Positions 2,615-28,592 of a stretch of 40,079 nt of DNA are shown one piece after another (position 1 is the stretch's first letter; each line of letters opens with the position of its first letter). The DNA lies in IMG/VR virus record IMGVR_UViG_3300022555_003212; one strand, 5' to 3'. The DNA comes from an uncultured virus (IMG/VR IMGVR_UViG_3300022555_003212) (taxonomy: Duplodnaviria; Heunggongvirae; Uroviricota; Caudoviricetes). Below the pieces are notes generated by a model. The model did not search any database. It saw only the letters and a program-made list of their open reading frames with translations, and was not told where the DNA came from. Both the position numbers and the translations under genes were made by a program.

Positions 2615-3022
2615 TTACATATCAAAACAATTAGCTTTCTTTTTGACAAGTATGTTATGCTTTATTTTTTCAATCTCTTCATCTATATTACCAGTAAATC
2701 CATATATTGTTATGGGGGTTGTTATATCCAAGCTTTGCATTTTTTTAAAATTATACTTATCATCAAAGTTAATCATAAATGCAATGTGCGCCCCGATTAT
2801 CTGGAAATCCAGATTTTTAACGTTACCATATTTTATTCTGATTCCATTTAAAAGTTGGCACCTAATATCTTTTCCAACTAACAATTCTAATAAAATGTCA
2901 TTATAGAGTTTAAGTTCTATTTGTTGGACATCATCAGTTTTTGGATTTGGTGAAACTACATCATTCCAAATATCCAGTAAATTTACCTTCTGTTTTGTGC
3001 TATACTTTTTAAAATCAATCAT
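2615..3022 (-). CDS. FDL-array protein, family B (unknown beta-rich domain)
   Basis: MIDFKKYS start; LLVGKDIRC...GNVKNL; ends CFDM. Confidence 0.8.
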   Translation of the reverse strand: MIDFKKYSTKQKVNLLDIWNDVVSPNPKTDDVQQIELKLYNDILLELLVGKDIRCQLLNGIRIKYGNVKNLDFQIIGAHIAFMINFDDKYNFKKMQSLDITTPITIYGFTGNIDEEIEKIKHNILVKKKANCFDM

Positions 3023-3437
3023 AGATCAAAAACTTCACCATGTTTTCTGGCTTTAGTGTCTTTAATAACTTTATTCACACTTGGTAAATCAAGTAAGCGT
3101 ATGCTAATAGGAGTATCTACATATATTTCAAATATTGTCTTACCACTTATAATTTTTCGTTTGTCGGAAAATTCAAAAACAACATATTGAATATTCTCTG
3201 ACCCGCCAAATTTTAAATTAACATGACTAACAGTACCTCGTCTATCACCTTGCCAAACGGTTGATATTTTTATATATTTTCCAATCAGCATCTCCTTTAG
3301 CATTTTTCTAAAAACATTTTATTGAGCTGTGATAACCGATGGAAATTTATATTATCAATGACACTAAGCATTATATCTTTCAGATTAAGCTTAACTGACG
3401 TTGATTTTGTTTCATATAGTTTAAAAGTAGTTATCAT
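3019..3437 (-). pseudogene. FDL-array family B gene split by a 1-nt frameshift
   Basis: ATG at 3437 gives MITTFKLYE...NKMFLEK then stops; the 3019-3303 frame (MLKEMLIGKY...VFDL) continues in the -1 frame across an A-run at ~3303-3307. Confidence 0.65.
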
Positions 3438-3772
3438 AAATCAAATCTTAGTTTTGCCAGTTCAGCATCACTTGCTTCCGTAGCTTTTTTAATGTCTTTA
3501 CCATGGTATAGTATCCGACCAAGTACAGAACTATCAAATCTTGATCTCATAGTATGTGGAATCTCCCAAATTTTTCCCATTTGCCCAACCCAGTTCCAGT
3601 CGAATGAAACCCTAAAAACTTTTTTAATATACATTATTCCAACTTTCTGTTCCCCCATACCAGTTTGAAATGCAACTGTTAAATAATCTCCAGCTTCAGG
3701 AAATATACCACTATCTTGGTAGCTTTTCTCATCATCTTCAATTGTTTCAAATAATTGGAATTTTGTTATCAT
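3434..3772 (-). CDS. FDL-array hypothetical protein
   Basis: MITKFQLFE...KLRFDL. Confidence 0.85.
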   Translation of the reverse strand: MITKFQLFETIEDDEKSYQDSGIFPEAGDYLTVAFQTGMGEQKVGIMYIKKVFRVSFDWNWVGQMGKIWEIPHTMRSRFDSSVLGRILYHGKDIKKATEASDAELAKLRFDL

Positions 3773-4224
3773 AGATCAAAACGATTTTGGACCTTTACTT
3801 GCATACCTTTTTTGGTATAATCAAACAGAATATCTTTTAATGATCTCATGTTTTTCTCCTGTGATGATGATGCAGCATCAACCCAGTTCTTTTTAAATGT
3901 TCCACCAGCCCTTGATTTTTCGTGCCCAAATGGTTTTATGACAGATGAAATATTTCCAGGATTAAAAATTGTTCCGACAAAATCTGAATATAATATGGCG
4001 TGTCTTTCACCCTTACCTAATCCTGATTTAACATGACGTTTATCTACCCTTAAATATAACCTTTCAGTTCCAACCAAGTATAAATATGCATCTACATAAT
4101 CAGCATCATCATCCCATGACCAATATGAATAATTAACAGCAATTAATTTTCCATCTGGCACCTCTGGGGCATCCGAAGTGCTTCCCCACACCTCAAAAAT
4201 TCTATATGGTATAATTTTTTTCAT
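3769..4224 (-). CDS. FDL-array hypothetical protein
   Basis: MKKIIPYRIFE...QNRFDL. Confidence 0.85.
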   Translation of the reverse strand: MKKIIPYRIFEVWGSTSDAPEVPDGKLIAVNYSYWSWDDDADYVDAYLYLVGTERLYLRVDKRHVKSGLGKGERHAILYSDFVGTIFNPGNISSVIKPFGHEKSRAGGTFKKNWVDAASSSQEKNMRSLKDILFDYTKKGMQVKVQNRFDL

Positions 4225-4228
4225 GTTG

Positions 4229-4237
4229 TATATATTA
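4229..4237 (-). promoter_or_regulatory. Putative late-type promoter TAATATATA
   Basis: Recurrent WWATATATA motif just upstream of an operon-starting ATG. Confidence 0.45.
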
Positions 4238-4239
4238 AT

Positions 4240-4695
4240 TTATAGATCAAATCTTTTTGTCTTGGCATCAATCCTTAATCTACTTAAAAAATCCAGCTTA
4301 CTATTATCATAAACTTTGATGTCATTTGACATATCAACAACGTTATCCTTGCTTACTGAATTTTCAAAATAAATCTTAATCCCACACTCCATAAAATCGG
4401 TTGATGATGAGTAAAATTTAATATCTTTTACAATACCATTTATTGGTGTGCTATTTGTAGGTCTTCCATCAATTGTTAAAGTATTAAAATAAACCATGTG
4501 ATCAATTAAAATAAATCTAAAAATACAATTAATAACATATAGTTTATTTTTTTCTAACCCATTCCCGACAATTTGTCGATGTAGTTCTTGGATTTCAGTA
4601 AGATTATTCAAAATAGTTGTTATAATATTTTTAACATCAAGTAAATAATATTCGCCAAAAGAATCTGAATTTTCAAAATGTTTCAAGTATCTCAT
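4240..4695 (-). CDS. FDL-array protein, family B
   Basis: MRYLKHFEN...INGIVKDIKF...IKVYD...TKRFDL. Confidence 0.85.
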   Translation of the reverse strand: MRYLKHFENSDSFGEYYLLDVKNIITTILNNLTEIQELHRQIVGNGLEKNKLYVINCIFRFILIDHMVYFNTLTIDGRPTNSTPINGIVKDIKFYSSSTDFMECGIKIYFENSVSKDNVVDMSNDIKVYDNSKLDFLSRLRIDAKTKRFDL

Positions 4696-5162
4696 AGATC
4701 AAATCTTTTTGCAATGTTATCCTTCTTTAATTTCTTTATCAAATCATCTATTGAATTATTATGGATTCTTATATCATGATCAGTGTTAACAGTATAAATA
4801 TGTCTGTTAACCATAAATTCTATTTTGGTTTTAAAACTATCCCCCAGCATAAATGATGATGGTGCTCCAACGAAAACCTTTGTTACAATACCTGATACTA
4901 ATGGGCAATTAATAGTAAAGTGCCCATCTTTATGCCATGAGTTAAAATCAACGTTATATCCAACTAATAGTTTATTTAGGAATGTAACAAATATATCATG
5001 TTCTGTATGCGTACTTCCACCATATGATGTTTTATATCCAACAGATTTTAATACATTATGCAAGTCATCATAATTTGTATTACAATACTTCCACAATAGT
5101 TTTATATTAAGGCTATAACTGCCGACACCATTCATATATTCATATGTTTTTAAATACCTCAT
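4692..5162 (-). CDS. FDL-array protein, family B
   Basis: MRYLKTYE...LLVGYNVDF...VSGIVTKV...AKRFDL. Confidence 0.85.
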   Translation of the reverse strand: MRYLKTYEYMNGVGSYSLNIKLLWKYCNTNYDDLHNVLKSVGYKTSYGGSTHTEHDIFVTFLNKLLVGYNVDFNSWHKDGHFTINCPLVSGIVTKVFVGAPSSFMLGDSFKTKIEFMVNRHIYTVNTDHDIRIHNNSIDDLIKKLKKDNIAKRFDL

Positions 5163-5665
5163 AAATCGAATCTTGAAAATTTAATATCTTTTTTTATTTG
5201 CTCAAGCACAATTTTTAATTTATCTATATATCCCCCAAGGGTAACAGAATCTTTTAAACTATCCCGAATTATTTCTTCAAATTTATCAACCCAGACTGCA
5301 TAACTATCTGAATTATTCATATCGTCATCACCCCAATCTTGACTTCCTAATGCTAATTTATATAATTTACTAATAATGAATGATAATGACATTATTTTTA
5401 ATATTCTGTCATTATCTGATAGTTTTAATGCTCTAACCTTTTCATTATTTTCATTTGGAGTATCCAATAAAAACGCAGCACCTGATGCTACACTACAATT
5501 TATAACTCTATCACTATGCAGTTTATGAATATGAAATACTAAACTTTCGTCAAATTTTCTAAGTATTTTAACTTTACCAAAATCGAATAGATATGATGTA
5601 TACGCAGATTTAGGTGACGAAATCCAAGATGAATCAGCTTCATTATATTTTACAATTTTTGTCAT
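5159..5665 (-). CDS. FDL-array protein, family C (paralog of 16872-17501)
   Basis: MTKIVKYNE...DSVTLGGYIDKLK...SRFDL. Confidence 0.85.
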   Translation of the reverse strand: MTKIVKYNEADSSWISSPKSAYTSYLFDFGKVKILRKFDESLVFHIHKLHSDRVINCSVASGAAFLLDTPNENNEKVRALKLSDNDRILKIMSLSFIISKLYKLALGSQDWGDDDMNNSDSYAVWVDKFEEIIRDSLKDSVTLGGYIDKLKIVLEQIKKDIKFSRFDL

Positions 5666-6081
5666 AGATCAAATCTTTTTTCCCTACCAATATTTATTTC
5701 TTCAATTTGATATTTAGGATACTTTTCTTTTATTTCATCAATAAGATTATCTATATTGTTATAATCACAATAAAAAACGATCATTTCCCGATCATTTGGT
5801 TCATCGTATTGCGTATGCGTAAATTTACTTGTTTTTAGAATCATTTCCAGCGCATGAAAATTTGACGGCTCATCATATAGTCGTATTTCTACATTTCCGC
5901 CAAATCTATAAAACATTATATCTGAATTGCCTCTGGTGATATTTAAATACCGCAATCCAGTTTTTTCTCCTTTTCTAACTGTAATAGACCCATCGCAAAA
6001 ATCCCGTATAGTATTTGTTAATTTAAGAAATACTATATTTCGTTGCTGTACATCTTTCCATGATTCGAAAATAGTTATCAT
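5662..6081 (-). CDS. FDL-array hypothetical protein
   Basis: MITIFES...EKRFDL. Confidence 0.85.
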   Translation of the reverse strand: MITIFESWKDVQQRNIVFLKLTNTIRDFCDGSITVRKGEKTGLRYLNITRGNSDIMFYRFGGNVEIRLYDEPSNFHALEMILKTSKFTHTQYDEPNDREMIVFYCDYNNIDNLIDEIKEKYPKYQIEEINIGREKRFDL

Positions 6082-7163
6082 TTGGTTGGAATTACGTTGT
6101 CTGAATCTTGTTTAGGAGGGAGACCAACTAAACCTCTCAAATTGTTTTCAAAGCCTTTTTTATCAAAATTTTCTTCTTTTTCAATTATTTTAAATCTTTT
6201 AGAATTCCACCAAACTTTCTCTGGGTCTTCTTCTAATTCATAAAAAGTTAACGTACCATTTTCCTCTAAATTTGTAACTGTATACTGATCACCTTCTTTA
6301 ATTTTCCAATCAGTCTCAGTCTTTATTCCCAAGTCATTAATACATTCAACTGTTTCACCAACTTCAGCAATTAGTTTATTTTTGGCAGCAAATCTATGCT
6401 TAAAGAAAAGTCCATGCTTGGCTATATCCTGTTCCATTTTAGTACGTGGACCTGAATCGTGTGTTTGAAAATAAATCCCTTCAATTTTCTGGAATGATCC
6501 ATTAAGTATATCAAGTCTTGGATCGTACATTTCATCACTCTTATCATCTTCTTCAAATGCTTTCATGAGTGCGTCATACCATTTATTCATAAAAGATTCA
6601 CATTTTCCAACCCACATAGCTTTTTGTTTCATTTTACCAGGTTTTTCTGGGTCTGGTATAGGTACATTTATTACTTCAACATCAAGTTCTTCTTTATGAT
6701 ATGTAAGAAGTAATTTAATAATAATAGTTGAATTGAATATATCGGATTTTATTTTACTTGATGTAGCCTTAATTATTTTATCTAATTCAATATCTGTTAA
6801 AGGTACCTCAGATAATAACCTTTCTTGAAAAGGTGATTTAAAATCAATAGATGCTAAATAATCACGCATCGGTTGAGCCTTATCTTCTTCTTGTGGCTTA
6901 TTTGTATCTGTTACCCAATCTACGATATCATCCATTGGAGCTTCTTCTTTGCTCATTTCTGAGAATTTTAGCATAGCTTCATCCCAAAGGTTACGCCATG
7001 GTGGGTGCTGAATATATGAGTGGCTATCTTTGATCTTTTGAAACGCAGCCGTTATTTTATCAAAATCTTTAAGTGCAAATATTTCATCGATCTTTGCTGA
7101 AAGCTCACGTGGGGTCATTCTTTTCCAAGGTTCTTCATCTTCAAAAAATTTAAGGTATTTCAT
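6078..7163 (-). CDS. N-tagged 361-aa protein with C-terminal SH3-like domain, no FDL tail
   Basis: MKYLKFFED start; C-terminal VECIND...ELEEDPEKVWWNSKRF is homologous to 7694-7963. Confidence 0.85.
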   Translation of the reverse strand: MKYLKFFEDEEPWKRMTPRELSAKIDEIFALKDFDKITAAFQKIKDSHSYIQHPPWRNLWDEAMLKFSEMSKEEAPMDDIVDWVTDTNKPQEEDKAQPMRDYLASIDFKSPFQERLLSEVPLTDIELDKIIKATSSKIKSDIFNSTIIIKLLLTYHKEELDVEVINVPIPDPEKPGKMKQKAMWVGKCESFMNKWYDALMKAFEEDDKSDEMYDPRLDILNGSFQKIEGIYFQTHDSGPRTKMEQDIAKHGLFFKHRFAAKNKLIAEVGETVECINDLGIKTETDWKIKEGDQYTVTNLEENGTLTFYELEEDPEKVWWNSKRFKIIEKEENFDKKGFENNLRGLVGLPPKQDSDNVIPTK

Positions 7164-7182: not shown

Positions 7183-7192
7183 TATATATTTA
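7183..7192 (-). promoter_or_regulatory. Putative late-type promoter TAAATATATA
   Basis: WWATATATA motif upstream of ATG 7163. Confidence 0.45.
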
Positions 7193-7194: not shown

Positions 7195-7230
7195 TTATAG
7201 ATCGAATCTTGATCCTTTAAGATACTTCAT
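7195..7230 (-). other. Tag-only mini-ORF MKYLKGSRFDL (11 aa)
   Basis: ATG AAG TAT CTT AAA GGA TCA AGA TTC GAT CTA TAA; ATG overlaps the preceding FDL stop. Confidence 0.75.
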
Positions 7231-7697
7231 AAATCAAATCGTGATCATTTTTTATTAACCAGAAAACCTTTCTGATTCATCTTATAAAATTTTGCAACAT
7301 CAAGCATGGATAAATACAATGTAACACTATTGTTTAATAGATAATTAATTCCAAGGCTTGATGCATAACGATATAAATCTTGTGCAAAAGTACGAGCATC
7401 ATCAGAAACGGGGTATATATTAAGTATAATCAAATCTTGATAATACATTTTATCTTTTTCTTTATATGTTAGTGTAATACTAAGTGCGGTTTTAGAATCA
7501 TCCACAAATTCAAGAAATGATGCACTCCAATCCATATGATTATCATTATCGAATCCGATATATGAAGATAACGTTGTATATCCATTCACAGATTCTACAA
7601 AGTTTGATATGAACTCACCAAGCTTTAGAAGAATATCTTCTTTTGAACTATTGAAAAATCCAATTGATTTATCTTCATATGTTTTCAAATATTTCAT
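7227..7697 (-). CDS. FDL-array protein with premature TGA five codons before the FDL end
   Basis: MKYLKTYED...VNKK*SRFDL*; in-frame TGA at 7245-7247 (track ORF 7245-7697). Confidence 0.75.
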
Positions 7698-7963
7698 AAG
7701 TCAAATTTTTTCATTGCTTCAATTTTATTCACTGTAAATCTTGAAGCTCTCCACCATGTTTTATCTGGGTCTTCTTCAAGTTTATAGTATATTGTCATAT
7801 CATCAAGAACATCAATAACACTATACTCATCACCAATAATAAGTTTCCAATGTGTACCAATTTTATCACCATCGTTAACACAAATGACTTTATCCCCAGC
7901 ATTAGCAAGTTTAGTATAATCAATATATTTTGATTTACCTTCGTATGTTTTTAGATATTTCAT
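7694..7963 (-). CDS. FDL-array SH3/KOW-like protein
   Basis: MKYLKTYEG...GDKVICVND...IGDEYSV...KKFDL. Confidence 0.85.
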   Translation of the reverse strand: MKYLKTYEGKSKYIDYTKLANAGDKVICVNDGDKIGTHWKLIIGDEYSVIDVLDDMTIYYKLEEDPDKTWWRASRFTVNKIEAMKKFDL

Positions 7964-8061
7964 AAGTCGAATCTATCTTCCAATTTTTGTTTTTTTATTT
8001 CTTCAAGTGTTTTTTTAGATTTTGTAAATCTCCACGCTCCATATTTAAAGGCTTTAAGCAC
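7960..8061 (-). pseudogene. C-terminal remnant of an FDL gene (33 codons)
   Basis: VLKAFKYGAWRFTKSKKTLEEIKKQKLEDRFDL*; no N-tag and no in-frame ATG. Confidence 0.55.
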
Positions 8062-8065: not shown

Positions 8066-8075
8066 TATATATAAA
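8066..8075 (-). promoter_or_regulatory. Putative late-type promoter TTTATATATA
   Basis: WWATATATA motif at the head of a sub-array. Confidence 0.4.
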
Positions 8076-8210: not shown

Positions 8211-8876
8211 CTACAGGTCAAATCGCTTATATACTTTATCCTTGGAGATACCATATTCAGATTCCGTGAAAGAATGTATTATAAAAACATTTTTTTGAGA
8301 ATACAGTTCTTTAATTATATTAGAAATGATATTTTTGTTTCTGTCTAATATTTGATCATATAGAGTAAATATGTCATTTAAGTTACTTGGGGTAACCATT
8401 TGATTATTCACAAAATCGTGAATTTTAGTTCCGCCAAAATATTCTTCATAAATTAGCATAGTACTCATATTTGATTTTAGATATAATAACACCGCCTTTA
8501 TCTTCCAATCACTTGCCGTATTATTTGATAATAATGAAGTTGCCCCAGTTGTCTGAATATAAACACTATCAATATATTTTGTTATTTCAAAAATCTTGTC
8601 ATATGATGTCTTATCGATATCATCTGGAATATTTAAAATATATGAACGTTTATTTTTCATACGTAGGTAACCAAAATAAAATTTTGATATTTCAGATCGG
8701 CATATTGCAGCATCAAACCCATCAAGCCCTTTAGTATCTTCTACTCTCCAATCACAATGATATGATGGTAGTTTATATTTTACTGGATAGGACCTGATTT
8801 TTAAAAACATATAATCCCAATCTTTGTAGGTAATATCAACAGATTCAAACAATCTAAAATTTTTCATATATATCAT
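8211..8876 (-). CDS. FDL-array hypothetical protein
   Basis: M(IYM)KNFRLFES...YKRFDL, TAG stop. Confidence 0.85.
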   Translation of the reverse strand: MIYMKNFRLFESVDITYKDWDYMFLKIRSYPVKYKLPSYHCDWRVEDTKGLDGFDAAICRSEISKFYFGYLRMKNKRSYILNIPDDIDKTSYDKIFEITKYIDSVYIQTTGATSLLSNNTASDWKIKAVLLYLKSNMSTMLIYEEYFGGTKIHDFVNNQMVTPSNLNDIFTLYDQILDRNKNIISNIIKELYSQKNVFIIHSFTESEYGISKDKVYKRFDL

Positions 8877-9340
8877 AAGTCAAACTGGGTACCTTTTCTT
8901 TTTGCTTTCATGTTTCTTAATATATCCTTCAATTCTTGTGGAACATCATATATAAATAATTGATCTGTTTTTCTTATAACATAAAGAATTTTATTCCCCA
9001 TTATTAAATCACTTTCTGGTCTGGCACCAACATCATGCAATGCATAAAAAACAATTTCATGTATTACATCATCTACTGTATTTTGGCATTCGGCAAATCT
9101 TTTGGTATCAGATTTTGGTTGATTCGGATCATATCTTTCTTGAACTTTTGTACAACGCCATTTAACACGATTACCAATTAATAATTCCTCTATAAATTCT
9201 ATACATTCCATCGGAGCATCTAACTGTGGCTTTGGAAATTCTGTTGAACGCAATCGTTCAAAAAACCGCCACGCATCATATATCTCATTAAGAGTTACTG
9301 TTAGGCAATTACTATTATGATCTTCAAAAGTCTTTATCAT
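8873..9340 (-). CDS. FDL-array protein, family B
   Basis: MIKTFED...VTLNEIY...LLIGNRVKW...GTQFDL. Confidence 0.85.
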   Translation of the reverse strand: MIKTFEDHNSNCLTVTLNEIYDAWRFFERLRSTEFPKPQLDAPMECIEFIEELLIGNRVKWRCTKVQERYDPNQPKSDTKRFAECQNTVDDVIHEIVFYALHDVGARPESDLIMGNKILYVIRKTDQLFIYDVPQELKDILRNMKAKRKGTQFDL

Positions 9341-9951
9341 AAGTCAAATCTTTTTCCTTTTTTATTTATTCGTAATTGCTTTAGTATTTCTGGGTATTCT
9401 TCCGCTATTTTTCGTTTCAAAAAATGTGATGATACTGACCAAAAATCACCATCATTATCTTTGATCGGATCAATGTAATACGGATTTGCACCAGCTTTTA
9501 ATAACATCCTAATAATTTCCATGCACTCTTCAACAACTCCCTCACGGTTTTCGGATACAGCAAACGAATTCTCAGCGACTGATCCCAATATACTCGAACC
9601 AGATTTAGTTATGTTATTTGGGTTTGCTCCTTTAGATAATAAAAGTTTTACGATTTTTATATTTCTATTACGGGCAGCCCAAAATAACGGTGAGAGGTTT
9701 CTATTGGTACATTTATTAACATCCGCTCCATTCTCAACCAAAAATTCAATCATAGAATCTGGATGATTGCGGCAAGCCTCTACTAAGGTTGGTGATTGTG
9801 TTCCAAGATCAATTGCAATATAATCGATATAATTTGGATTTTTATCTATCAATTTTTGCAATTCATCAGTATCATTTAAAGCAAATGCCTGTCTCCAAAT
9901 ATTTTCATCTTCACCAAGCCCCTCATTAATAAATTGCAAATATTTTTTCAT
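9337..9951 (-). CDS. Ankyrin-repeat protein, dual-tagged
   Basis: MKKYLQFINE; FLVENGADVN, SPLFWAA, LLLSKGANPN; GKRFDL. Confidence 0.9.
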   Translation of the reverse strand: MKKYLQFINEGLGEDENIWRQAFALNDTDELQKLIDKNPNYIDYIAIDLGTQSPTLVEACRNHPDSMIEFLVENGADVNKCTNRNLSPLFWAARNRNIKIVKLLLSKGANPNNITKSGSSILGSVAENSFAVSENREGVVEECMEIIRMLLKAGANPYYIDPIKDNDGDFWSVSSHFLKRKIAEEYPEILKQLRINKKGKRFDL

Positions 9952-10655
9952 AAATCAAATTGACTTTCTATAAAATATTTTCTTATATCGTTAGATATTT
10001 TTTTGGATTCTTCTTCGCTAATATTTTTAGTGTTTTTAGACTCTACAAAAATTTTGTATGAAGGTTTTTTAACAAACTGTAATGTGTGAGTATTATTAAG
10101 ACCACTTTTACCAAATTCTTCTGAGAATACCCCATCGGTAAATTGGTAATGACCTTCTAATATTTTTGGAAACGCTATAAAATACATTGAATGTGCACCT
10201 TTCCATCCAGTAAAATCTAACGATTTTTTTAATTCTGTTACATAGTATTCAATACTATCTTGTTTTGCAAGCTCAACCATTTTGTTATATTTCTTATCAC
10301 GGATCAAATTCCAATATTTATAAAAATATCCGCCAGCTTTTTCATTTACTGGTTGTATATGAATTTCATCGAAAGATATGAACCCAAAATCTAAAAAATT
10401 TTTTAGTATGTTATCCGCTTCAGTAGGCTTAAATGCTGGGGAATATGTTGGCGCAGATGGTCTGTCTATAACGCCAGAATTAATTAACGTTTGAACTGCC
10501 GATTCATAAAAATCGTGAACCTTTGGGAAATCTTCAAAATATGAATATAATTTAACGAATAATTCACACACCTGAATATGCGGGTCAATTAATGGGACTG
10601 GCTCATAATTTTCCAAATCATTAAAACTTTTAAAAACTTCATATTTTTTTATCAT
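9948..10655 (-). CDS. FDL-array hypothetical protein
   Basis: MIKKYEVF...ESQFDL. Confidence 0.85.
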   Translation of the reverse strand: MIKKYEVFKSFNDLENYEPVPLIDPHIQVCELFVKLYSYFEDFPKVHDFYESAVQTLINSGVIDRPSAPTYSPAFKPTEADNILKNFLDFGFISFDEIHIQPVNEKAGGYFYKYWNLIRDKKYNKMVELAKQDSIEYYVTELKKSLDFTGWKGAHSMYFIAFPKILEGHYQFTDGVFSEEFGKSGLNNTHTLQFVKKPSYKIFVESKNTKNISEEESKKISNDIRKYFIESQFDL

Positions 10656-19709: not shown

Positions 19710-19739
19710 AAACAAAAAACCAAGTTGGATTACTTGGTT
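19709..19739 (-). terminator. Intrinsic terminator
   Basis: AACCAAGT-AATCCA-ACTTGGTT hairpin followed by TTTTGTTTT on the minus strand. Confidence 0.6.
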
Positions 19740-20408: not shown

Positions 20409-20749
20409 AGATCAAATCTTTCTTCAGTGTTTAATTTACGCTTAGCTTCCAAATATCTTTTCACATCTTCGTCAGTAACATTATGATTAGTTTCAAATTC
20501 ATTTATTGATATCTCATTAATTGTTAATGTCCATTCCCTTTCTTTAATTTCTTCTATATCATCAAAAATAAATTCGGTAGTTTCACTATCATAATCACCA
20601 TTATTATCGATTAAATATTTATATTTAGCCAGTTCAGCATCTTCTTTTTTATCAAAATATGCCATGGCAAATCTTTCCTCCTCATCATCAAAATATAATT
20701 GATAGATGCTTCGTTTACCAACACTTTCATTAAACTTATTTATTTTCAT
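20405..20749 (-). CDS. FDL-array hypothetical protein
   Basis: MKINKFNES...YFDKKEDAE...EERFDL. Confidence 0.85.
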   Translation of the reverse strand: MKINKFNESVGKRSIYQLYFDDEEERFAMAYFDKKEDAELAKYKYLIDNNGDYDSETTEFIFDDIEEIKEREWTLTINEISINEFETNHNVTDEDVKRYLEAKRKLNTEERFDL

Positions 20750-21226: not shown

Positions 21227-21313
21227 TTATAGGTCAAATCTTTTGGTGCTTATTTTTCTTTGGTAATACTTCTTACTTAATTCATCTTGCTCAAATAATT
21301 TAATATATTTCAT
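21227..21313 (-). CDS. 28-aa near-empty dual-tag peptide (not in ORF track)
   Basis: MKYIKLFEQDELSKKYYQRKISTKRFDL*; in frame, ATGA overlap upstream. Confidence 0.75.
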   Translation of the reverse strand: MKYIKLFEQDELSKKYYQRKISTKRFDL

Positions 21314-21789
21314 AAGTCAAATTGATCCTTGTTTAGAAAATTCTTAAAATTTTCAATTGTTAATTGTGATTGGAATTTTGAGAAATTTTCTGTTTTAATA
21401 CTGATATATATTTTTTGTTTACCACCTAAATTAAACTTGTTACGTGCATTACAATATTTTAATGTCATAAAGAATTTATTTATTGTGTCGGGGAAGCCCA
21501 ACATATGCAAATCTATATCCCAATCTGTATCATAAAAATTGTTTAAAAACATATTTCCTCTTGCGTGATTAACAAAAAATTCATCCATTGATTTAAATTG
21601 TCCTTCAACGAAATATAATAATTTATCAGTCTGTCCGTCTATTCCTTGTTTAACAGCTATGTTATAATAAACACTACTATCTATGGCATTCCACAATTCT
21701 TTCACAAAATCAAATATAGATGTACAACAAGCAACAAAGTAAGCTTTATCCCTTAGTCCACTTTCAATACCTTCCCTGTAGCTGCTCAT
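21310..21789 (-). CDS. FDL-tailed protein lacking the N-tag
   Basis: MSSYREGIES...KDQFDL. Confidence 0.8.
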   Translation of the reverse strand: MSSYREGIESGLRDKAYFVACCTSIFDFVKELWNAIDSSVYYNIAVKQGIDGQTDKLLYFVEGQFKSMDEFFVNHARGNMFLNNFYDTDWDIDLHMLGFPDTINKFFMTLKYCNARNKFNLGGKQKIYISIKTENFSKFQSQLTIENFKNFLNKDQFDL

Positions 21790-22244
21790 AAATCAAATTG
21801 TTTTGTGGTGTTTAATCTTTCAGTTTCTTTATTAAATATAATTACATCCGCATCTCTTTTTGACGCATGTGTTTTTAATGAATTATATTGATAAGATAAC
21901 ATATCAATACTATGATCCTTATCTGTCATACCATCAATTTCAAGTTCTACCCTGTCAAAACCATCGACAACATTACCATCCTTACTATAAAGGTAATTGA
22001 CGTTAATACAATATCCTTTGTGCGTTTTACTGCAATCAAAGCATTTAAATTGTATTATTTTATTATCAAGAATTTCTTTAACAGTATTTTCAAACGTTGG
22101 ATATACTCCCCATCGATTCAGAGTTGAATGATCATTATCTTTTTTAGTTTCATCGTAGAGATCATATAAATTAACGGTAGTTATTTCACCATTTGTTTTA
22201 ATTGATGTTGTTCCATAAGCTTCATATGTTTTCAAATATATCAT
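21786..22244 (-). CDS. FDL-array protein, family B with CxxC-x3-H
   Basis: MIYLKTYEA...FKCFDCSKTHKG...TKQFDL. Confidence 0.85.
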   Translation of the reverse strand: MIYLKTYEAYGTTSIKTNGEITTVNLYDLYDETKKDNDHSTLNRWGVYPTFENTVKEILDNKIIQFKCFDCSKTHKGYCINVNYLYSKDGNVVDGFDRVELEIDGMTDKDHSIDMLSYQYNSLKTHASKRDADVIIFNKETERLNTTKQFDL

Positions 22245-22672
22245 AAGTCAAACCTGTCTGTTGTTACTCCTATTTTGTTAATTATTATTGGTTCATACAC
22301 ATTAACCATATGATCATTATCATTGTGCATATCCCAGTCCTGACCCCGTAATTTAAATTTAACCCTAATTAAATTTGGTCTACCGTCATCGGTTTCGAAT
22401 TCATCATCTTCAAATTCAGTTTCTTCCAATATTCCGCTATGTGTCGTTTGACATTCTATGCAGTCATAAGTCACATATTTACCTACTATTAAATTGTCTA
22501 AATAATCTACAAACCGATTATCTTTATATTTATCTTTCCATTGCTTAGTTTTTTTGTTAAAAACTGTCATCTCATCATATAAATACTGAAGAGTTATTTT
22601 TGTTATATTCTTATCAACAACCTGAATAGCATTGGGTGTAACGAAATTTTCATATAATTTTAGGTATCTCAT
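22241..22672 (-). CDS. FDL-array protein, family B with CxxC-x3-H (start revised to 22672)
   Basis: MRYLKLYEN...YDCIECQTTHSG...TDRFDL. Confidence 0.85.
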   Translation of the reverse strand: MRYLKLYENFVTPNAIQVVDKNITKITLQYLYDEMTVFNKKTKQWKDKYKDNRFVDYLDNLIVGKYVTYDCIECQTTHSGILEETEFEDDEFETDDGRPNLIRVKFKLRGQDWDMHNDNDHMVNVYEPIIINKIGVTTDRFDL

Positions 22673-22678
22673 CGGTTG

Positions 22679-22688
22679 TATATATAAA
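22679..22688 (-). promoter_or_regulatory. Putative late-type promoter TTTATATATA
   Basis: 6 nt upstream of ATG 22672. Confidence 0.45.
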
Positions 22689-22722
22689 AACCCAAAGATT
22701 TTTTTATTACCAATAAGTATCA

Positions 22723-22730
22723 TATATTTG
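22723..22730 (+). promoter_or_regulatory. Bacteroidota-type -7 element (TATATTTG)
   Basis: TAnnTTTG, upstream of a small plus-strand ORF. Confidence 0.45.
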
Positions 22731-24081: not shown

Positions 24082-24109
24082 ATTATATACTATATATGAC
24101 GAAAAGTTT
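24082..24109 (-). promoter_or_regulatory. Putative phage promoter AAACTTTT-N14-TATAAT
   Basis: Exact boxes and spacing; 8 nt before ATG 24073. Confidence 0.6.
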
Positions 24110-24590
24110 AAAGATCAAATTTTTTTTGATTCTTCTTTGATTCAACAGCTTTAAATAAAATACTTTTTACTTTGGCTTGGTTATTAAATATTTGAATTTG
24201 ACTTGATTTATCTATTGGATGCTTTGGGCAATCAAGGGTTTTAACCCACACCTCAAGGTCAGATACACCTTTGAACGATCTTACCTTTCTAAATTCAAGT
24301 TTTGTAACTTTGCCACTATGATCATGATAACATTCACACGCACCATCAAATGCTATTATATTTCCATTTAAAATTTTTCTGACTACATCTTCAAACTTAA
24401 AGTCATTATATTTATCACATATAGCATCAAATGCAGTATTGGCTTTTGGATTTTCATAACATAATGTCGAAAATATATCGTATATGTCTACTAATAACGG
24501 ATTTTTAATCTCATCTGAAGTTAGTTCTGGATATTTTCTTTTCAACTGTTCAAGATCATAATAATCAAGGTATTCTTTTAAGTATTTCAT
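24108..24590 (-). CDS. FDL-array protein, family B (Cys/His variant)
   Basis: MKYLKEY...ILNGNIIAF..ACECYHDHSGKV...QKKFDL. Confidence 0.85.
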   Translation of the reverse strand: MKYLKEYLDYYDLEQLKRKYPELTSDEIKNPLLVDIYDIFSTLCYENPKANTAFDAICDKYNDFKFEDVVRKILNGNIIAFDGACECYHDHSGKVTKLEFRKVRSFKGVSDLEVWVKTLDCPKHPIDKSSQIQIFNNQAKVKSILFKAVESKKNQKKFDL

Positions 24591-25006
24591 AGGTCAAATC
24601 GTTGGAATTTTTTTATTTTTTCAATTTGTTTCATTAAATCACTATCTGGATTTTGTGTTTTGTATTGCTTATATACCTCACTGTTTCGTATCCAGAAATC
24701 TTCAATCTGCCCAAGCTCCTCATCGTACACAAGACTAACATCTCTGTAAGTATATATGTATGCTGCCATTAATCTTACAAGTTTGTTTTCTTTAAACAAT
24801 TCGCTTAACCCAAACTTATCAACTATAAACTGATAAATAATATCATAATCACGATATTCATCATAACTTTGTGGAAGATTATCTATATATTCAGTCAATG
24901 CAGCCCAGTCAAGATGATCATTTTCTGTAAAAAAGTAGTTCCCAAATTTTATAGTGTAAATATTAACGTTTGGAGTTACCGATTCAAATGCCTTAATATA
25001 TTTCAT
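24587..25006 (-). CDS. FDL-array hypothetical protein
   Basis: MKYIKAFES...FQRFDL. Confidence 0.85.
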   Translation of the reverse strand: MKYIKAFESVTPNVNIYTIKFGNYFFTENDHLDWAALTEYIDNLPQSYDEYRDYDIIYQFIVDKFGLSELFKENKLVRLMAAYIYTYRDVSLVYDEELGQIEDFWIRNSEVYKQYKTQNPDSDLMKQIEKIKKFQRFDL

Positions 25007-25010: not shown

Positions 25011-25020
25011 TATATATAAA
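25011..25020 (-). promoter_or_regulatory. Putative late-type promoter TTTATATATA
   Basis: 4 nt upstream of ATG 25006. Confidence 0.45.
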
Positions 25021-26993: not shown

Positions 26994-27079
26994 GTATAAA
27001 AAATATACAATTAAAAATTGGGAACGCAAAGAGAAATTGCGAAGACTAAATGAAATTTGTAATGAAAAAAAAGATATAG

Positions 27080-27472
27080 TTACTCAGGAGTTACTACCAA
27101 CCAATTTTTATCATCCGCACTTATTTTTAAATGTGGAGTATTTATAGTTGTATCTTTATCCACTAACATTAGTTTAAAAAATGTTTTGCCGTTTTTTACA
27201 TTTTTATCTATAAATTTGTTACTGTAATATTCCAAATAGCCACCATTAAAATGTCCTTCATAATCATCAATTTTAAATTCATGAAACTTTTGGCTTATTT
27301 TACTTATAGAATCTTTGACAGATTCAGCGGGAATATTTCCTTTTTCTTTATTTACTTTATTTCCACCAAAAGTCGAGTATGAACCTAATATTGCCAAAAT
27401 TGTAATTACCCAATTTTTCCAACCTTCGTTTATATTTTCTTTATATTCTGAAAAATAATTTATTCTTCCCAT
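27080..27472 (-). CDS. N-tagged protein with hydrophobic/TM segment, no FDL
   Basis: MGRINYFSEYKENINEGWKNWVITILAILG. Confidence 0.7.
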   Translation of the reverse strand: MGRINYFSEYKENINEGWKNWVITILAILGSYSTFGGNKVNKEKGNIPAESVKDSISKISQKFHEFKIDDYEGHFNGGYLEYYSNKFIDKNVKNGKTFFKLMLVDKDTTINTPHLKISADDKNWLVVTPE

Positions 27473-27492
27473 AACATTACTTATTTTTCTAC

Positions 27493-27504
27493 TATATATA
27501 TATT
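27493..27504 (-). promoter_or_regulatory. Putative late-type promoter (AATATATATATA)
   Basis: Upstream of ATG 27472. Confidence 0.4.
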
Positions 27505-27525
27505 TTTAAACTTAAAATCTTGTCA

Positions 27526-28017
27526 CTAAAAAGCTGAATTCCCCCGATAATATTCAAATATAGACGATAAAAATTCTTTATAATTTTTTTCATTTTGTCT
27601 TGCTTCTCTTACCGCAACTGAATAGTCATCATTCGTGGCTGATTCTATCACAGTAATTGAAACTCTAACCTCATCCGCTATATGTGGTTCTATATCACGC
27701 AATGTAAGATATTCATCCTCACCTTCACTTGAATACTCGATACTTTCAAGATCGTCAACATCTTCACTTTTATCCATATCCCAGTTATCAATATTTTCAA
27801 CCTGATTGCCAAGCCATTGCAACCATAGATCACCAAATCTGTTTTCATTATTCTTATCTACTAAGTATATTCCATAAACTTTACCAGCCCGTTCAACTAT
27901 ATCATCTCTCCAATCTTGGGTTTCATCCAATTTAACAACATAAAGTAACGGAATTTGAATATTTACAAACTCTCTCTTGGGGGCACCTTCTAAAATAAAA
28001 TCAGAATAATTTTTCAT
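27526..28017 (-). CDS. N-tagged acidic protein, no FDL
   Basis: MKNYSDFILE start; ATGA overlap with upstream FDL gene. Confidence 0.8.
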   Translation of the reverse strand: MKNYSDFILEGAPKREFVNIQIPLLYVVKLDETQDWRDDIVERAGKVYGIYLVDKNNENRFGDLWLQWLGNQVENIDNWDMDKSEDVDDLESIEYSSEGEDEYLTLRDIEPHIADEVRVSITVIESATNDDYSVAVREARQNEKNYKEFLSSIFEYYRGNSAF

Positions 28018-28592
28018 AAATCAAATTGCTTTATTTTTCCCATAGATGGGAATATACTATCGATAAATTTTCTTGTTTCAGCATCTGCCATATCATAAAA
28101 ATCTTCGCCCTGATCATTTTTAATGTTTGGGTTAGCACCTTTTGCTAATAGCATTCTAATAATTTCATTTTTGGAGCCAGCACCCGTATTAATTTTTGGA
28201 AGATCAACAGTAATCATTAATGCTGTAAACCCTTCATATTTTTTATCAAATGTAACTTTCACATTTAAATCAATTTCTTTCTGATTTAATAAAAACTTCG
28301 CAGCGGTAAATTTACAATTCCTTATAGCAAGAATTAGTGGGGTCTCATTTGCATAATTTACGGCATTTATATTTGCACCTCTTAATATTAAGCCTTTCAC
28401 AGTAGATAAATATCCAGCAATTGCAGCCGTCTGTAATGGTGTATACCCACCATCTATAGTTTCAATATCAATTCCCTCATCAAGTATCTTAGCCACAAGT
28501 TCCCATTTTCCCATTTGAATACAATCAAACATCAAATGTGCTCTATCTTGCTTGTATTCTTCTAAAATAACAAATTCAAAATAATTATTCAT
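28014..28592 (-). CDS. Ankyrin-repeat protein, dual-tagged
   Basis: MNNYFEFVILEE; GYTPLQTAA, LILRGANIN, ETPLILAI, LLAKGANPN; IKQFDL. Confidence 0.9.
   Translation of the reverse strand: MNNYFEFVILEEYKQDRAHLMFDCIQMGKWELVAKILDEGIDIETIDGGYTPLQTAAIAGYLSTVKGLILRGANINAVNYANETPLILAIRNCKFTAAKFLLNQKEIDLNVKVTFDKKYEGFTALMITVDLPKINTGAGSKNEIIRMLLAKGANPNIKNDQGEDFYDMADAETRKFIDSIFPSMGKIKQFDL

Follow-up and report, generated by a model that had tools for sequence, protein, structure and literature searches.

The phage represented by this window (the whole 40,079-nt stretch of DNA analysed) marks more than a hundred small, otherwise unrelated proteins at both ends, with a carboxyl-terminal tail ending in FDL (C-tag) and a short amino-terminal peptide (N-tag). 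Both tags are short linear motifs, and purifying selection on them acts at the amino-acid level. In the common architecture of tagged proteins, the first 8-10 aa form the N-tag, which closes on Glu; a variable body and then a basic amphipathic helix follow, and (R/Q/K)-F-D-L stands at the free carboxyl end. The window is part of a 176-kb megaphage contig, of which 115 kb with 251 ORFs were examined, and the phage is a giant, uncultured, T4-related megaphage, a relative of phage LR756501 (735 kb). Among readings of the tags, a role in addressing or delivery has the best support, and about even odds (roughly 0.5) are given to tagged proteins being cargo loaded into the prohead via the N-tag, with the C-tag as a second docking motif.

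Extent and organization of the tail tag

FD[LM] closes 39 window ORFs of 30 aa or longer; 38 are minus-strand ORFs within 2615-28592, and the other is on the plus strand at 33898-34221, beyond the span first reported. The pattern TTY-GAY-(Leu/Met codon)-stop occurs at 43 sites, comprising these 39 and four remnants whose open frames do not exceed 26 codons (7206, 7238, 15183 and 21238), a total that agrees with the 37 ORFs and six hidden copies counted in the sequence-only reading. Against the shuffled background proposed there, the junction motif TTYGAYYTATGA is present in 35 copies where 0.16 were expected, a number attained in none of 100 shuffles. The tag is nevertheless more than the "array of about 40" then described, as it is found on 114 of the 251 ORFs (45%) in the examined 115 kb and throughout the clade. 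The stop was rightly said to vary (TGA 33, TAA 5, TAG 1 among the 39), and in 33 of the 39 it shares an ATGA with the following start codon. The basic helix and K/R/Q noted before the tail are likewise borne out: R, Q or K directly precedes FDL in 34/39 window ORFs, the residue is R in 78, Q in 24 and K in 7 of the 114 contig tags, positions -13 to -4 are K-rich, and a helix before the C-tag is predicted in both AlphaFold2 models. The features of the window are as follows ("tagged" refers to the C-tag).

2615..3022 (-) tagged ORF, 135 aa, ends CFDM-TAA; array's last gene
3019..3303 (-) tagged ORF, 94 aa, ends VFDL
3297..3437 (-) ORF, 46 aa, N-tag MITTFKLYE, no C-tag
3434..3772 (-) tagged ORF, 112 aa, MITKFQLFE...RFDL
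3769..4224 (-) tagged ORF, 151 aa, ...RFDL
4229..4237 (-) promoter-like TAATATATA, 4 nt before ATG at 4224
4240..4695 (-) tagged ORF, 151 aa, MRYLKHFE...RFDL-TAA, no start/stop overlap
4692..5162 (-) tagged ORF, 156 aa, MRYLKTYE...RFDL; paralogue of 4240-4695
5159..5665 (-) tagged ORF, 168 aa, ...RFDL
5662..6081 (-) tagged ORF, 139 aa, ...RFDL
6078..7163 (-) ORF, 361 aa, N-tag MKYLKFFE, no C-tag
7183..7191 (-) promoter-like AAATATATA, upstream of 7163
7195..7230 (-) mini-ORF MKYLKGSRFDL, N-tag fused directly to C-tag; apparent emptied cassette
7227..7244 (-) SRFDL-stop remnant, behind the in-frame TGA truncating ORF 7245-7697
7245..7697 (-) ORF, 150 aa, N-tag MKYLKTYE; tail lost to premature stop
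7694..7963 (-) tagged ORF, 89 aa, MKYLKTYE...KFDL
7960..8061 (-) short tagged ORF, 33 aa, ...RFDL
8066..8074 (-) promoter-like TTATATATA
8211..8876 (-) tagged ORF, 221 aa, ...RFDL-TAG, no overlap, Leu codon CTG
8873..9340 (-) tagged ORF, 155 aa, ...QFDL
9337..9951 (-) tagged ankyrin protein, 204 aa, MKKYLQFINE...RFDL; AlphaFold2 model
9948..10655 (-) tagged ORF, 235 aa, ...QFDL
10652..11146 (-) tagged ORF, 164 aa, MIKLFELFNE...RFDL
11143..11607 (-) tagged ankyrin protein, 154 aa, MKNYRQFNE...SFDL
11604..12089 (-) tagged ankyrin protein, 161 aa, MKKYIEFITE...QFDL
12086..12496 (-) tagged ORF, 136 aa, ...RFDL; unit's first gene
12502..12510 (-) promoter-like TAATATATA, 5 nt before ATG at 12496
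13101..13874 (-) ORF, 257 aa, N-tag-like start MKNFNDFLKMN, no C-tag; 56% identity to an LR756501 protein
13893..13901 (-) promoter-like TAATATATA
13929..14546 (-) tagged ankyrin protein, 205 aa, MKYLKKYE...RFDL-TAA, no overlap
14543..15175 (-) tagged ankyrin protein, 210 aa, MKKYLQFINE...RFDL
15172..15208 (-) apparent frameshifted emptied cassette: N-tag start MKYLN..., KQFDL-stop in other frame
15205..15723 (-) tagged ORF, 172 aa, MRYLRKYD...QFDL
15720..16067 (-) tagged ORF, 115 aa, ...QFDL
16064..16495 (-) tagged ORF, 143 aa, MIYLKTYE...RFDL
16492..16875 (-) tagged ORF, 127 aa, MKYLEDYD...RFDL
16872..17501 (-) tagged ORF, 209 aa, MKYLKKYE...RFDL; sole database relative 98% identical
17498..18007 (-) tagged ORF, 169 aa, MKYLKLYE...RFDL
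18004..18534 (-) tagged ORF, 176 aa, MKNLKMFE...QFDL
18531..18953 (-) tagged ORF, 140 aa, MKYLNTYE...QFDL
18950..19723 (-) tagged ORF, weakly ankyrin-like, ...RFDL; true start probably internal MKKYD after motif 19701-19709
19738..19890 (-) short tagged ORF, 50 aa, ...QFDM-TAA
19911..20408 (-) ankyrin paralogue, N-tag MIKYTEFVFE, decayed tail ..KEVHLQ
20405..20749 (-) tagged ORF, 114 aa, ...RFDL
20746..21210 (-) tagged ORF, 154 aa, MRKIKNYE...RFDL
21227..21313 (-) mini-ORF, 28 aa, MKYIKLFE...KRFDL-TAA; N-tag and C-tag with almost no body
21310..21789 (-) tagged ORF, 159 aa, ...QFDL
21786..22244 (-) tagged ORF, 152 aa, MIYLKTYE...QFDL
22241..22723 (-) tagged ORF, ...RFDL; motif 22679-22687 then ATG-AGA-TAC suggests a shorter true ORF
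24108..24590 (-) tagged ORF, 160 aa, MKYLKEY...KFDL-TAA, Leu codon CTT, no overlap
24587..25006 (-) tagged ORF, 139 aa, MKYIKAFE...RFDL; unit's first gene
25011..25019 (-) promoter-like TTATATATA, 4 nt before ATG at 25006
27526..28017 (-) ORF, 163 aa, N-tag MKNYSDFILE like the T4 capsid-targeting sequence, no C-tag
28014..28592 (-) tagged ankyrin protein, 192 aa, MNNYFEFVILE...QFDL; array's first gene
28598..28606 (-) promoter-like TAATATATA, 5 nt before ATG at 28592
33898..34221 (+) tagged ORF outside array, 107 aa, ...QRFDL, no N-tag, in CoA-biosynthesis gene cluster
35966..36400 (-) untagged homologue (36% identity across 98 aa) of a protein in relative G002 that has both tags

Selection on the tail peptide

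The 114 tags hold 130 base differences, all at four sites where change can be synonymous (0, 0, 33, 0, 0, 35, 51, 0 and 11 per position of TTTGATTTA), and the only amino-acid changes are two Leu-to-Met codons, as the earlier claim of almost entirely synonymous variation had it. Both partners are tagged in 19/19 homologue pairs below 60% identity, and in an 18-member family with a mean column identity of 29% the invariant columns are F, D and L only. None of the 251 ORFs adds residues after FDL, and among 147 distant homologues, the best representatives of one cargo family, [FY][DN][LIM] forms the exact C-terminus of 138; together these results indicate that the free C-terminus matters, as had been proposed. 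In distant homologues both tags hold their positions at the very ends of the protein.

It is scarcely credible that the conserved unit is instead the DNA or RNA of the stop/start overlap, serving in re-initiation or as a promoter or recombination site, with the peptides as by-products. ATGA overlaps the next ATG in 86/114 tags, one gene's C-tag is contiguous in DNA with the next gene's N-tag, and C-ending Asx codons are enriched (GAC 31% in tags vs 15% in bodies; AAC 50% vs 13% in G002), with the Phe codon TTC at close values (29% vs 23%); the mini-ORFs, as apparent emptied cassettes, further suggest emptying or swapping by recombination at the tags. However, FDL is retained without the overlap in 28/114 tags, the overlap is absent from 48/101 tags in G002, and tags also occur on the first and last genes of units. 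Leu in non-overlapping tags is encoded by TTA, CTA, CTT, CTG and TTG, Leu and Arg generally by several unrelated codons, and the tail persists in lineages with different nucleotide sequence. Site-wise variation, non-overlapping tags and codon diversity thus largely refute a nucleotide-level element.

Cargo bodies

The middles were reported as unrelated, and BLASTP among 84 window ORFs agrees: 70 are singletons, and the rest fall into three pairs and an ankyrin cluster of 8. Most tagged proteins are ORFans, small and fast-evolving, and some are ankyrin proteins, a fold present in 8 window proteins; in G002, 11/96 tagged proteins are ankyrin and two more leucine-rich-repeat (LRR). A further 76 tagged proteins gave no Pfam family (0/76). 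With a median pI of 5.5, against 7.9 for untagged ORFs, tagged bodies are mildly acidic, in contrast to the T4 internal proteins, which are described as highly basic (PMC8442874). AlphaFold2 models of two unrelated folds, one mixed strand/helix and one ankyrin (9337..9951), have well-modelled bodies with both tags as low-confidence free ends (pLDDT 51-65); as modelled, the tags sit as exposed ends on unrelated folds, between which they are portable.

That the ends are packed N- and C-terminal helices of one hyper-divergent superfamily, inherited from an ancestral fold and not signals at all, is highly improbable. Such descent would accommodate the co-inheritance of tags and bodies within families, the predicted helicity of both ends and the mini-ORFs that fuse N-tag directly to C-tag, but not tags on ankyrin and mixed strand/helix bodies of 43 to 285 aa, their residues being lowest in confidence in both models, or single families holding both N-tag classes. 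The untagged window homologue of a tagged G002 protein (35966..36400) also speaks against it, indicating that tags can be lost or gained.

The N-terminal tag

"Nearly all" tagged ORFs had been said to begin with a related peptide, which overstates a real feature: the N-tag is present in 21/39 window tagged ORFs by a strict pattern and 24/39 by a loose one, and at least two further ORFs (18950-19723 and 22241-22723) look over-long, each containing an internal promoter-like motif and, after it, a start that resembles the N-tag. Across the contig the N-tag accompanies the C-tag (70/114 ORFs with C-tag vs 11/137 without; Fisher p = 2e-20). The capsid-targeting sequence of T4 is given as MKTYQEFIAE (PMC8442874), with residues 4 and 7 assigned to targeting and 8 and 10 to processing (PMC9026906). 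The pattern M..[YF]..F[IVL].E fits five window ORFs (for example MKKYIEFITE), an 807-aa protease protein of LR756501 contains tandem ..IKY[SA]EYIAE.. repeats, and this scaffold-repeat pattern has 11-15 matches in each of the 14/14 relatives examined. The N-tag, although present as reported, is therefore no new kind of signal, as it resembles both the T4 sequence and the clade's protease-scaffold repeat. Only the MKKY..F[IV].E class, mostly confined to one paralogous ankyrin family, aligns in register with the repeat; the commonest N-tags (MKYLKxYE and MITxFKLFE) are out of register. The C-tag has no described counterpart and is a second label beside the N-tag.

Tail variants among relatives

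The (K/R/Q)FDL tag is real, yet it is one lineage variant, and a minority one, of [KRQ][FY][DN][LI]-COOH. Among the 147 best representatives of one cargo family, tail type differs between lineages, KYNL (82) being most frequent, then KYNI (16), RFDL (11), KFNL (11) and KFNI (10); each contig is dominated by one variant, and the tail changes in concert within lineages. One cargo family alone has 2589 database representatives. The 330-kb relative G002 has 101 of 599 ORFs tagged, and encodes its own Hsp70 and M3 oligopeptidase. LR756501, the closest complete relative, shares proteins with the contig (22 ORFs matched, 12 at 50-73% identity, maximum 73%) and has about 23 N-tagged proteins; it lacks the C-tag, and none of the tagged families has a homologue there.

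Possible prohead cargo and its alternatives

Since the N-tag resembles the capsid-scaffold repeat, the virus head is the probable destination of tagged proteins. The N-tag would mimic a single unit of the protease-scaffold repeat encoded by the phage itself, allowing the tagged protein to co-assemble with the prohead core, where a T4-type head protease would clip it after the conserved Glu; the cargo would be retained in the head and enter the next host along with the DNA. The C-tag may be a lineage-specific docking motif, its free C-terminus read by a partner that evolves along with it (the capsid shell, scaffold or portal, for example); scaffold protein C-termini resemble it vaguely at best. 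As a side effect, adjoining C-tag and N-tag coding stretches could serve as short homologies for emptying or swapping cassettes. Head genes were read in relatives, those of the window phage lying outside the examined 115 kb. In LR756501 the genes run portal, head protease, major capsid protein. The KYNL-type phage L145 has a tagged gene immediately after its portal gene and another two some 1.3 kb upstream of the latter, all three in the head gene block; one relative has tagged genes sited between those for portal and protease-scaffold protein. Counted against prohead cargo are the acidic bodies, the out-of-register N-tags, the promoter spacing given below, LR756501 without C-tag, the lack of a Glu site before the C-tag, and the scale of 45% of ORFs, for which we know of no precedent in packaged cargo. 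The addressing or delivery system first proposed thus gains from peptide-level selection, portability and the free C-terminus, but it is not one array, its N-tag is not a new kind of signal, and no reader of the tags was found.

Host-takeover effectors acting outside the virion, with the tail (and maybe the N-tag) as a cytoplasmic docking motif or degron, are an unlikely alternative. A hydrophobic-x-hydrophobic carboxy-terminal ligand would dock on one host or phage hub (protease/unfoldase, PDZ- or TPR-type reader, chaperone or sliding clamp) for timed turnover or local concentration. Many different cargoes suit a hub better than a capsid, and these are effector-like, given the ankyrin and LRR proteins of window and G002, the 0/76 Pfam result and the acidic bodies; the tail is modelled as exposed after a basic helix, and Hsp70 and the M3 oligopeptidase are at hand in G002. 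A hub leaves unexplained, however, the likeness of the N-tag to scaffold repeat and T4 sequence and the tagged genes in the L145 head block, and no PDZ, clamp or Clp family was found in the scanned proteins, which come from partial phage genomes.

More doubtful still is a division in which the N-tag loads the head as in T4 and the C-tag acts solely after injection, for example in docking to a host target or membrane or in timed destruction. The tags are separable, as seen in the 11/137 N-tagged ORFs without C-tag, the C-tag alone at 33898-34221, and LR756501; a conserved Glu cleavage site was not found before the C-tag in contig tags, so that the C-tag is probably retained on the mature protein. 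Concerted lineage-wise tail change is equally explained by a phage-encoded reader, though.

As to expression of the putative prohead cargo, a promoter-like motif lies upstream of 18/33 tagged unit leaders vs 16/80 other genes (p = 6e-4), and in LR756501 before 10 virion genes and 0/9 core replication genes (p = 0.004). It stands 4-6 nt from the ATG in tagged units vs 15-25 nt in structural genes, so the two may be different expression classes.

Distribution of the C-terminal tag

A mechanical scan of the window recovered 39 open reading frames (ORFs) of 30 aa or more with FD[L/M] at the C-terminus, and 38 of these are co-oriented on the minus strand between positions 2615 and 28592. The remaining one falls outside that span:

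33898-34221, plus strand, tagged ORF within a CoA-biosynthesis gene cluster

The pattern TTY-GAY-(Leu or Met codon)-stop occurs at 43 sites in the window, 4 of them in open frames of at most 26 codons, a total that agrees with the 37 tagged ORFs and six hidden copies counted in the sequence-only reading. The 12-mer TTYGAYYTATGA is present in 35 copies against 0.16 expected from 100 dinucleotide-preserving shuffles of the window, and no shuffle approached 35. Stop codons of the tagged ORFs are TGA (33), TAA (5) and TAG (1), and in 33 of the 39 the stop overlaps the next start as ATGA. The same reading had nearly all of these proteins also beginning with a related peptide, which overstates the case. 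Such a start, referred to here as the N-tag (the first 8-10 aa, ending in Glu, for example MKYLKxYE, MITxFKLFE or MKKY..F[IV].E), is found on 21/39 by a strict pattern and on 24/39 by a loose one; in at least two more tagged ORFs the start was apparently called too far upstream, so that an N-tag-like start is hidden inside.

On a contig of 175,979 bp, of which 115,172 bases were analysed, the window corresponds to positions 17785-57863 in reverse complement. Among the 251 ORFs of that portion (at least 40 aa, chosen greedily without overlap), 114 end in FD[LM], 112 as FDL and 2 as FDM, and every other C-terminal tripeptide occurs at most twice. The tagged genes had been described as a single array; the tags are real, but they are by no means restricted to one array. 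The terminal FDL is never followed by further residues, and FDL occurs internally 11 times in the 36,008 aa of contig ORFs. By strict patterns the N-tag starts 70/114 ORFs with the C-terminal tag (C-tag, here FD[LM], mostly preceded by R, Q or K) versus 11/137 others (p = 2e-20).

Selection on the tag peptide

Across the 114 tags, differences from TTTGATTTA number 0, 0, 33, 0, 0, 35, 51, 0 and 11 by position; they fall at positions 3, 6, 7 and 9 only and are therefore limited to four potentially synonymous sites. The sole amino-acid changes among them are two Leu-to-Met codons, so the claim that variation within the tag is almost entirely synonymous holds on the larger sample. In the junction profile, variation within the Phe and Asp codons of the tag is restricted to the third base, the other two being invariant, and the Arg at position -4 is encoded by AGA, CGA, CGT and AGG. 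Both members carry the tag in 19/19 homologue pairs of less than 60% identity, and F, D and L are the only invariant columns in an 18-member family with a mean column identity of 29%.

The frequent overlap of the tag with the next start brings to mind a nucleotide-level element at the gene junction, such as one for translational coupling. This explanation is largely excluded by the data and must be considered extremely improbable: 28/114 tags have no ATGA overlap and keep FDL all the same, with the Leu codons TTA, CTA, CTT, CTG and TTG, and changes are confined to the potentially synonymous sites. Tags are also borne by the first and last genes of transcription units. As for codon choice, the Phe codon of the tag is near body usage (TTC 29% versus 23%), and C-ending codons are over-used at the Asx position, with GAC at 31% versus 15% in bodies on the contig and AAC at 50% versus 13% in G002, a 330-kb IMG/VR relative that carries the C-tag. 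This excess is a nucleotide-level preference added to the selection on the peptide.

Tagged proteins and their bodies

The tagged proteins are 43-285 aa long (median 135.5), and their bodies, that is, the sequence between the tags, are mildly acidic, with a median pI of 5.5 versus 7.9 for untagged ORFs; a basic amphipathic helix occupies the approximately 13 residues that precede the tail. BLASTP among the 84 window ORFs yields an ankyrin cluster of 8, three pairs and 70 singletons, which mostly bears out the description of the middles as unrelated. Ankyrin repeats are the only Pfam family in the array, searches of the window against PHROGs left the tagged proteins without a match except for the ankyrin ones, and 0/76 tagged contig proteins outside the window could be assigned to any Pfam family. 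The tagged proteins of G002 (n = 96) include 11 with ankyrin repeats, 2 with leucine-rich repeats and 1 with an ExoX-like C-terminal motif. Homologue searches with two window proteins found only near-identical sequences, an ESM Atlas look-up of the 17498-18007 protein gave nothing useful, and megablast of window positions 13000-25000 against phage collections returned no match.

AlphaFold2 models were obtained for two families, one a mixed strand/helix body (mean pLDDT 89.6) and one an ankyrin protein (86.9). In both, the N-terminal ten residues form a short low-confidence helix (pLDDT 63 and 57) and the last 3-4 residues a low-confidence end (65 and 51); the tags are therefore best viewed as exposed linear motifs on unrelated bodies and not as a shared structural core. 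A PDB fold search with the family-0 model found nothing at E <= 0.001, the weak matches being small beta-barrel domains. Both classes of N-tag are found inside single families, one tagged protein of G002 is matched in the window by a homologue without tags, and three emptied cassettes, MKYLKGSRFDL among them, consist of an N-tag joined directly to a C-tag. Common ends could also descend from a single superfamily whose bodies have diverged; given the data on the bodies this is largely excluded, and we hold it to be very unlikely.

Tail variants among related phages

Distant homologues of one cargo family terminate in KYNL, KFNI or KFGI. An exhaustive profile search with that family returned 2589 representatives at E <= 0.001. 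Routine loss or extension of the tail in homologues, which would have told against the sequence-only reading, is not seen: among the best 147 new representatives, 138 keep [FY][DN][LIM] at the exact C-terminus (KYNL 82, KYNI 16, RFDL 11, KFNL 11, KFNI 10), and 4 of the 9 that lack an exact tail are extended by 1-3 residues. An N-tag starts 146 of these 147. One tail variant is dominant per contig, as illustrated by YNL on 23/38 ORFs of contig L056 and by FNL plus FNI on 19/50 of contig L065. In G002, 101 of 599 ORFs are tagged and only 53/101 overlap the next start. The IMG/VR relatives have a GC content of 22-26%; their contigs reach 330 kb and are rated 24-46% complete, so that the full genomes should measure about 700 kb. 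What is observed is thus a two-ended peptide tagging of unrelated proteins on the scale of a proteome. Selection acts on the peptide, the changes are concerted within each lineage, and a single reader or a few shared ones are implied.

Untagged proteins of the contig have homologues of up to 73% identity in LR756501, a complete 735-kb megaphage (22 ORFs with matches, 12 of them at 50-73%). According to the passages cited, this genome comes from a survey of huge phages whose largest genomes make up the "Mahaphage" clade, with Bacteroidetes as predicted hosts (PMC7162821). Among all 1048 ORFs of LR756501 no C-terminal tripeptide is enriched, and BLASTP found no homologues of the tagged families there; N-tag-like starts are present on about 23 of its proteins. 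At least five LR756501 proteins, three with an N-tag, end in DPYGEE[END]W plus two residues (loci L098, L100, L102, L121 and L069), and judging from these sequences an alternative C-terminal label may be in use.

The N-terminal tag and the capsid scaffold

In the passages cited, the capsid targeting sequence (CTS) of phage T4 is given as MKTYQEFIAE (PMC8442874), with residues 4 and 7 mainly governing targeting and residues 8 and 10 processing (PMC9026906). The prohead protease gp21 removes it from IPI-III and Alt (PMC8442874, PMC9026906, PMC5694885, PMC3012670), and Alt is described as having propeptides on both ends, cleaved at ITE and LTE (PMC5694885). The pattern M..[YF]..F[IVL].E, which keeps positions 4, 7, 8 and 10 of the CTS, fits five window ORFs (MKKYLQFINE twice, MKKYIEFITE, MIKYTEFVFE and MKNYSDFILE).

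Portal, protease and capsid genes of T4 type occur in relatives; the 115,172 contig bases analysed do not include the head genes. In LR756501 the order is portal (phrog_213, 2e-66), head maturation protease (phrog_207, 5e-27; Pfam S77 at 24.1 bits, under the 27-bit cut-off) and major capsid protein (PF07068, 6e-24), and all three genes are also present in L145, a relative of the KYNL type. The Pfam prohead protease family PF03420 gave no match in six partial IMG/VR records; as the control genomes gave none either, this result carries no weight. The 807-aa LR756501 protease protein (73913-76336, locus L099) contains tandem ..IKY[SA]EYIAE.. repeats. Such a fusion of the head maturation protease to a scaffold-like region is found in 14/14 relatives, each with 11-15 matches to a Y-x-E-Y-[IVL]-A-E unit (loci L133-L153). 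A scan of other loci of C-tag-bearing phages, which do not cover the head genes, found no copy of the repeat. The unit can be aligned with the T4 CTS and with the MKKY..F[IV].E tags of the window, as a similarity only, and this class of N-tag therefore resembles one self-association and cleavage unit of the scaffold. The MKYLKxYE and MITxFKLFE forms share two aromatics and have the terminal Glu in 26/34 and 34/36 cases; the argument is weaker for them because their register differs. A 1233-aa protein of LR756501 (154863-158564, locus L103) combines the N-tag MITKFKLFE with a tRNA nucleotidyltransferase domain; it would be a candidate for an enzyme among the cargo if N-tagged proteins are packaged.

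Gene neighbourhood and promoter-like motif

In L145, the gene that immediately follows the portal gene, ahead of the protease-scaffold gene, is doubly tagged, and two further tagged genes are located about 1.3 kb upstream of the portal gene. T4 genes 67 and 68, at the corresponding position, encode prohead core proteins. In L001, a locus of the FDL type, tagged genes are interspersed with baseplate-wedge and large-terminase genes.

The motif [AT]TATATATA or [AT]AATATATA precedes 18/33 leaders of tagged units versus 16/80 other contig genes (p = 6e-4).

Promoter-like motif sites in the window
4229-4237, minus strand, promoter-like motif
12502-12510, minus strand, promoter-like motif
25011-25019, minus strand, promoter-like motif
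28598-28606, minus strand, promoter-like motif

In tagged units it lies 4-6 nt ahead of the first ATG, which suggests mRNAs with no leader or almost none. In LR756501 the distance from motif to ATG is bimodal, at about 5 nt and at 15-25 nt. For proteins of at least 150 aa, 113 motif-bearing genes of that genome were compared with 136 motif-less genes that have an upstream gap of at least 40 nt. Members of the motif-bearing set include the portal, protease, large terminase, head-tail adaptor, baseplate wedge and five tail-fibre-like proteins, with no core replication gene among the 113. The motif-less set holds nine core replication genes (polymerase, two helicases, SSB, clamp loader, recombinase, ribonucleotide reductase, exonuclease and an SbcC-like protein) besides seven structural matches. 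The resulting contrast of virion to replication genes, 10:0 versus 7:9 (p = 0.004), suggests that the motif is a late-type promoter. Since the spacing is 4-6 nt in tagged units versus 15-25 nt in structural genes, the two may be separate expression classes.

Comparison with known targeting systems

Like the T4 CTS, the N-tag is an N-terminal peptide of about 10 aa that ends in Glu and is attached to otherwise unrelated, fast-evolving proteins; T4-type CTS are propeptides of about 10-19 aa, and here the peptide occupies residues 1-8/10 on two bodies that differ in predicted secondary structure. Tags at both ends recall the two propeptides of T4 Alt. The differences are considerable, as tagged genes number more than 100 per genome versus four named T4 proteins (IPI-III and Alt), the bodies are acidic where T4 IPI-III are highly basic, the commonest N-tag forms are in another register, and a second invariant tag at a free C-terminus has not been reported for T4 internal proteins.

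Phage scaffolding proteins bind coat through their C-terminal ends. A C-terminal targeting region is described for a prohead protease, SPN3US gp245, in the passages cited (PMC5694885). The C-tag is similar to such shell-binding ends of scaffolds and proteases in that both have a basic helix and then, at the very C-terminus, a few hydrophobic residues, and the MKKY..F[IV].E class would mimic the scaffold repeat; the C-termini of the clade's scaffolds, however, resemble the C-tag only vaguely. Encapsulin cargo-loading peptides are likewise short and C-terminal, and through them cargo proteins unrelated to one another reach the inside surface of a shell with the HK97 fold. Their sequence is different, and Pfam scans of 81 + 76 + 76 proteins detected no encapsulin shell family; the shell in question would be that of a true phage.

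Carboxy-terminal tripeptide address signals and class II PDZ ligands have a free carboxyl end and a hydrophobic-x-hydrophobic pattern, with Leu, Ile or Met tolerated last. The C-tag shares all of these features in a different, phage context, and among the proteins scanned there was no reader of this kind. The hyperplastic regions of T4-type phages are composed of co-oriented small genes that are rapidly exchanged and have short shared border sequences. In contrast, the shared border here is coding and selected as peptide, and the 4-nt overlap between genes leaves no place for an intergenic stem-loop.

Function of the tags

The chances are about even that the N-tag gives access to the prohead: it would recruit tagged proteins to the prohead core, a T4-type protease would cut it after the Glu, and the cargo would travel together with the DNA. 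If the C-terminal ends of scaffolds and proteases and the cargo peptides of encapsulins are taken as analogues, the C-tag could be a second docking motif. The most far-reaching reading, with a probability of roughly one in three, is capsid-borne delivery of effectors, in which the scaffold-mimicking N-tag and the clade-wide [KRQ][FY][DN][LI]-COOH tail would load well over 100 ankyrin, leucine-rich-repeat and ORFan proteins per head for injection with the DNA, the C-tag being read by a co-evolving structural partner. Such a partner would explain the concerted change of tails between lineages. Against the capsid reading stand the acidic bodies, a cargo number without precedent, N-tags mostly out of register with the scaffold repeat, a promoter spacing unlike that of structural genes, and the lack of the C-tag in LR756501.

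The chief rival is a cytoplasmic role, with the tags as hub-binding motif or degron; the scaffold-like N-tags stand against it, and it appears unlikely. Somewhat less likely still is a division of roles in which packaging concerns the N-tag only; each tag does occur alone as well. A literature search over papers without their supplements found no counterpart of the C-tag and no paper on shared C-terminal tags of phage proteins; it returned only papers on the CTS of T4 and giant phages and the huge-phage survey, and none of the papers listed connected megaphages with capsid targeting.

If capsid-borne delivery is correct, the heads of these phages, whose genomes measure about 700 kb, contain proteins of far greater diversity than is described for the cargo of any virion, which would change the view of the first minutes of infection and of the purpose of the many ORFan genes of huge phages. 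The tags provide a simple sequence rule for finding candidate injected effectors in metagenomes, the one cargo family searched having 2589 database representatives already, and, as short portable peptides, are potential packaging handles. Should the capsid reading prove wrong, the presence of one invariant tripeptide at the free C-terminus of nearly half of the ORFs still points to a reader worth finding.

Candidate readers and neighbouring genes

No sliding clamp of the gp45-type or beta-clamp family was found in five relatives (G002-G004, G006 and LR756501). Genes for C39-like cysteine peptidases adjoin tagged arrays on the contig (locus L043) and occur in LR756501.

C39-like cysteine peptidases
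147465-148070, contig, adjoining tagged arrays
153428-153943, contig, adjoining tagged arrays
545523-545945, LR756501
721350-721721, LR756501

As they are present in LR756501, which is without the C-tag, and the search of G002-G004 and G006, partial relatives that do bear it, gave none, a connection with the C-tag is not apparent. Near tagged genes, both the contig (7886-8236; L005:7889-8236:-) and G002 (262347-262703) encode an untagged protein of 116-118 aa, with 36% identity between the two and no BLASTP match in LR756501; it is a weak lead for the reader of the tag.

Other genes in and around the array are listed below; tRNA and Rfam scans of the window were both empty.

Neighbouring genes in the window
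26208-26990, plus strand, ADP-ribosylglycohydrolase, 73% identical to its LR756501 counterpart (auxiliary metabolism)
28597-28893, minus strand, T5orf172/GIY-YIG-like protein, at the upstream end of the array
28993-29898, plus strand, Seg-like homing endonuclease with NUMOD3 motifs, at the upstream end of the array
30110-30715, plus strand, dephospho-CoA kinase (auxiliary metabolism)
32675-33898, plus strand, flavoprotein (CoaC-like) fused to an M23 peptidase domain (auxiliary metabolism)
35247-35966, plus strand, DFP/CoaB-like protein (auxiliary metabolism)
39171-40079, minus strand, cytidylyltransferase with a MazG domain (auxiliary metabolism)

Both tags are missing from two blocks in which small genes overlap by 10-29 nt.

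Blocks of overlapping small genes
58-2530, minus strand, nine-gene block
22937-24073, minus strand, four-gene block

The genes of the first block have K-rich 'KLKK'-like ends in common, two genes of these blocks have homologues in G002, and the blocks are another multigene family.
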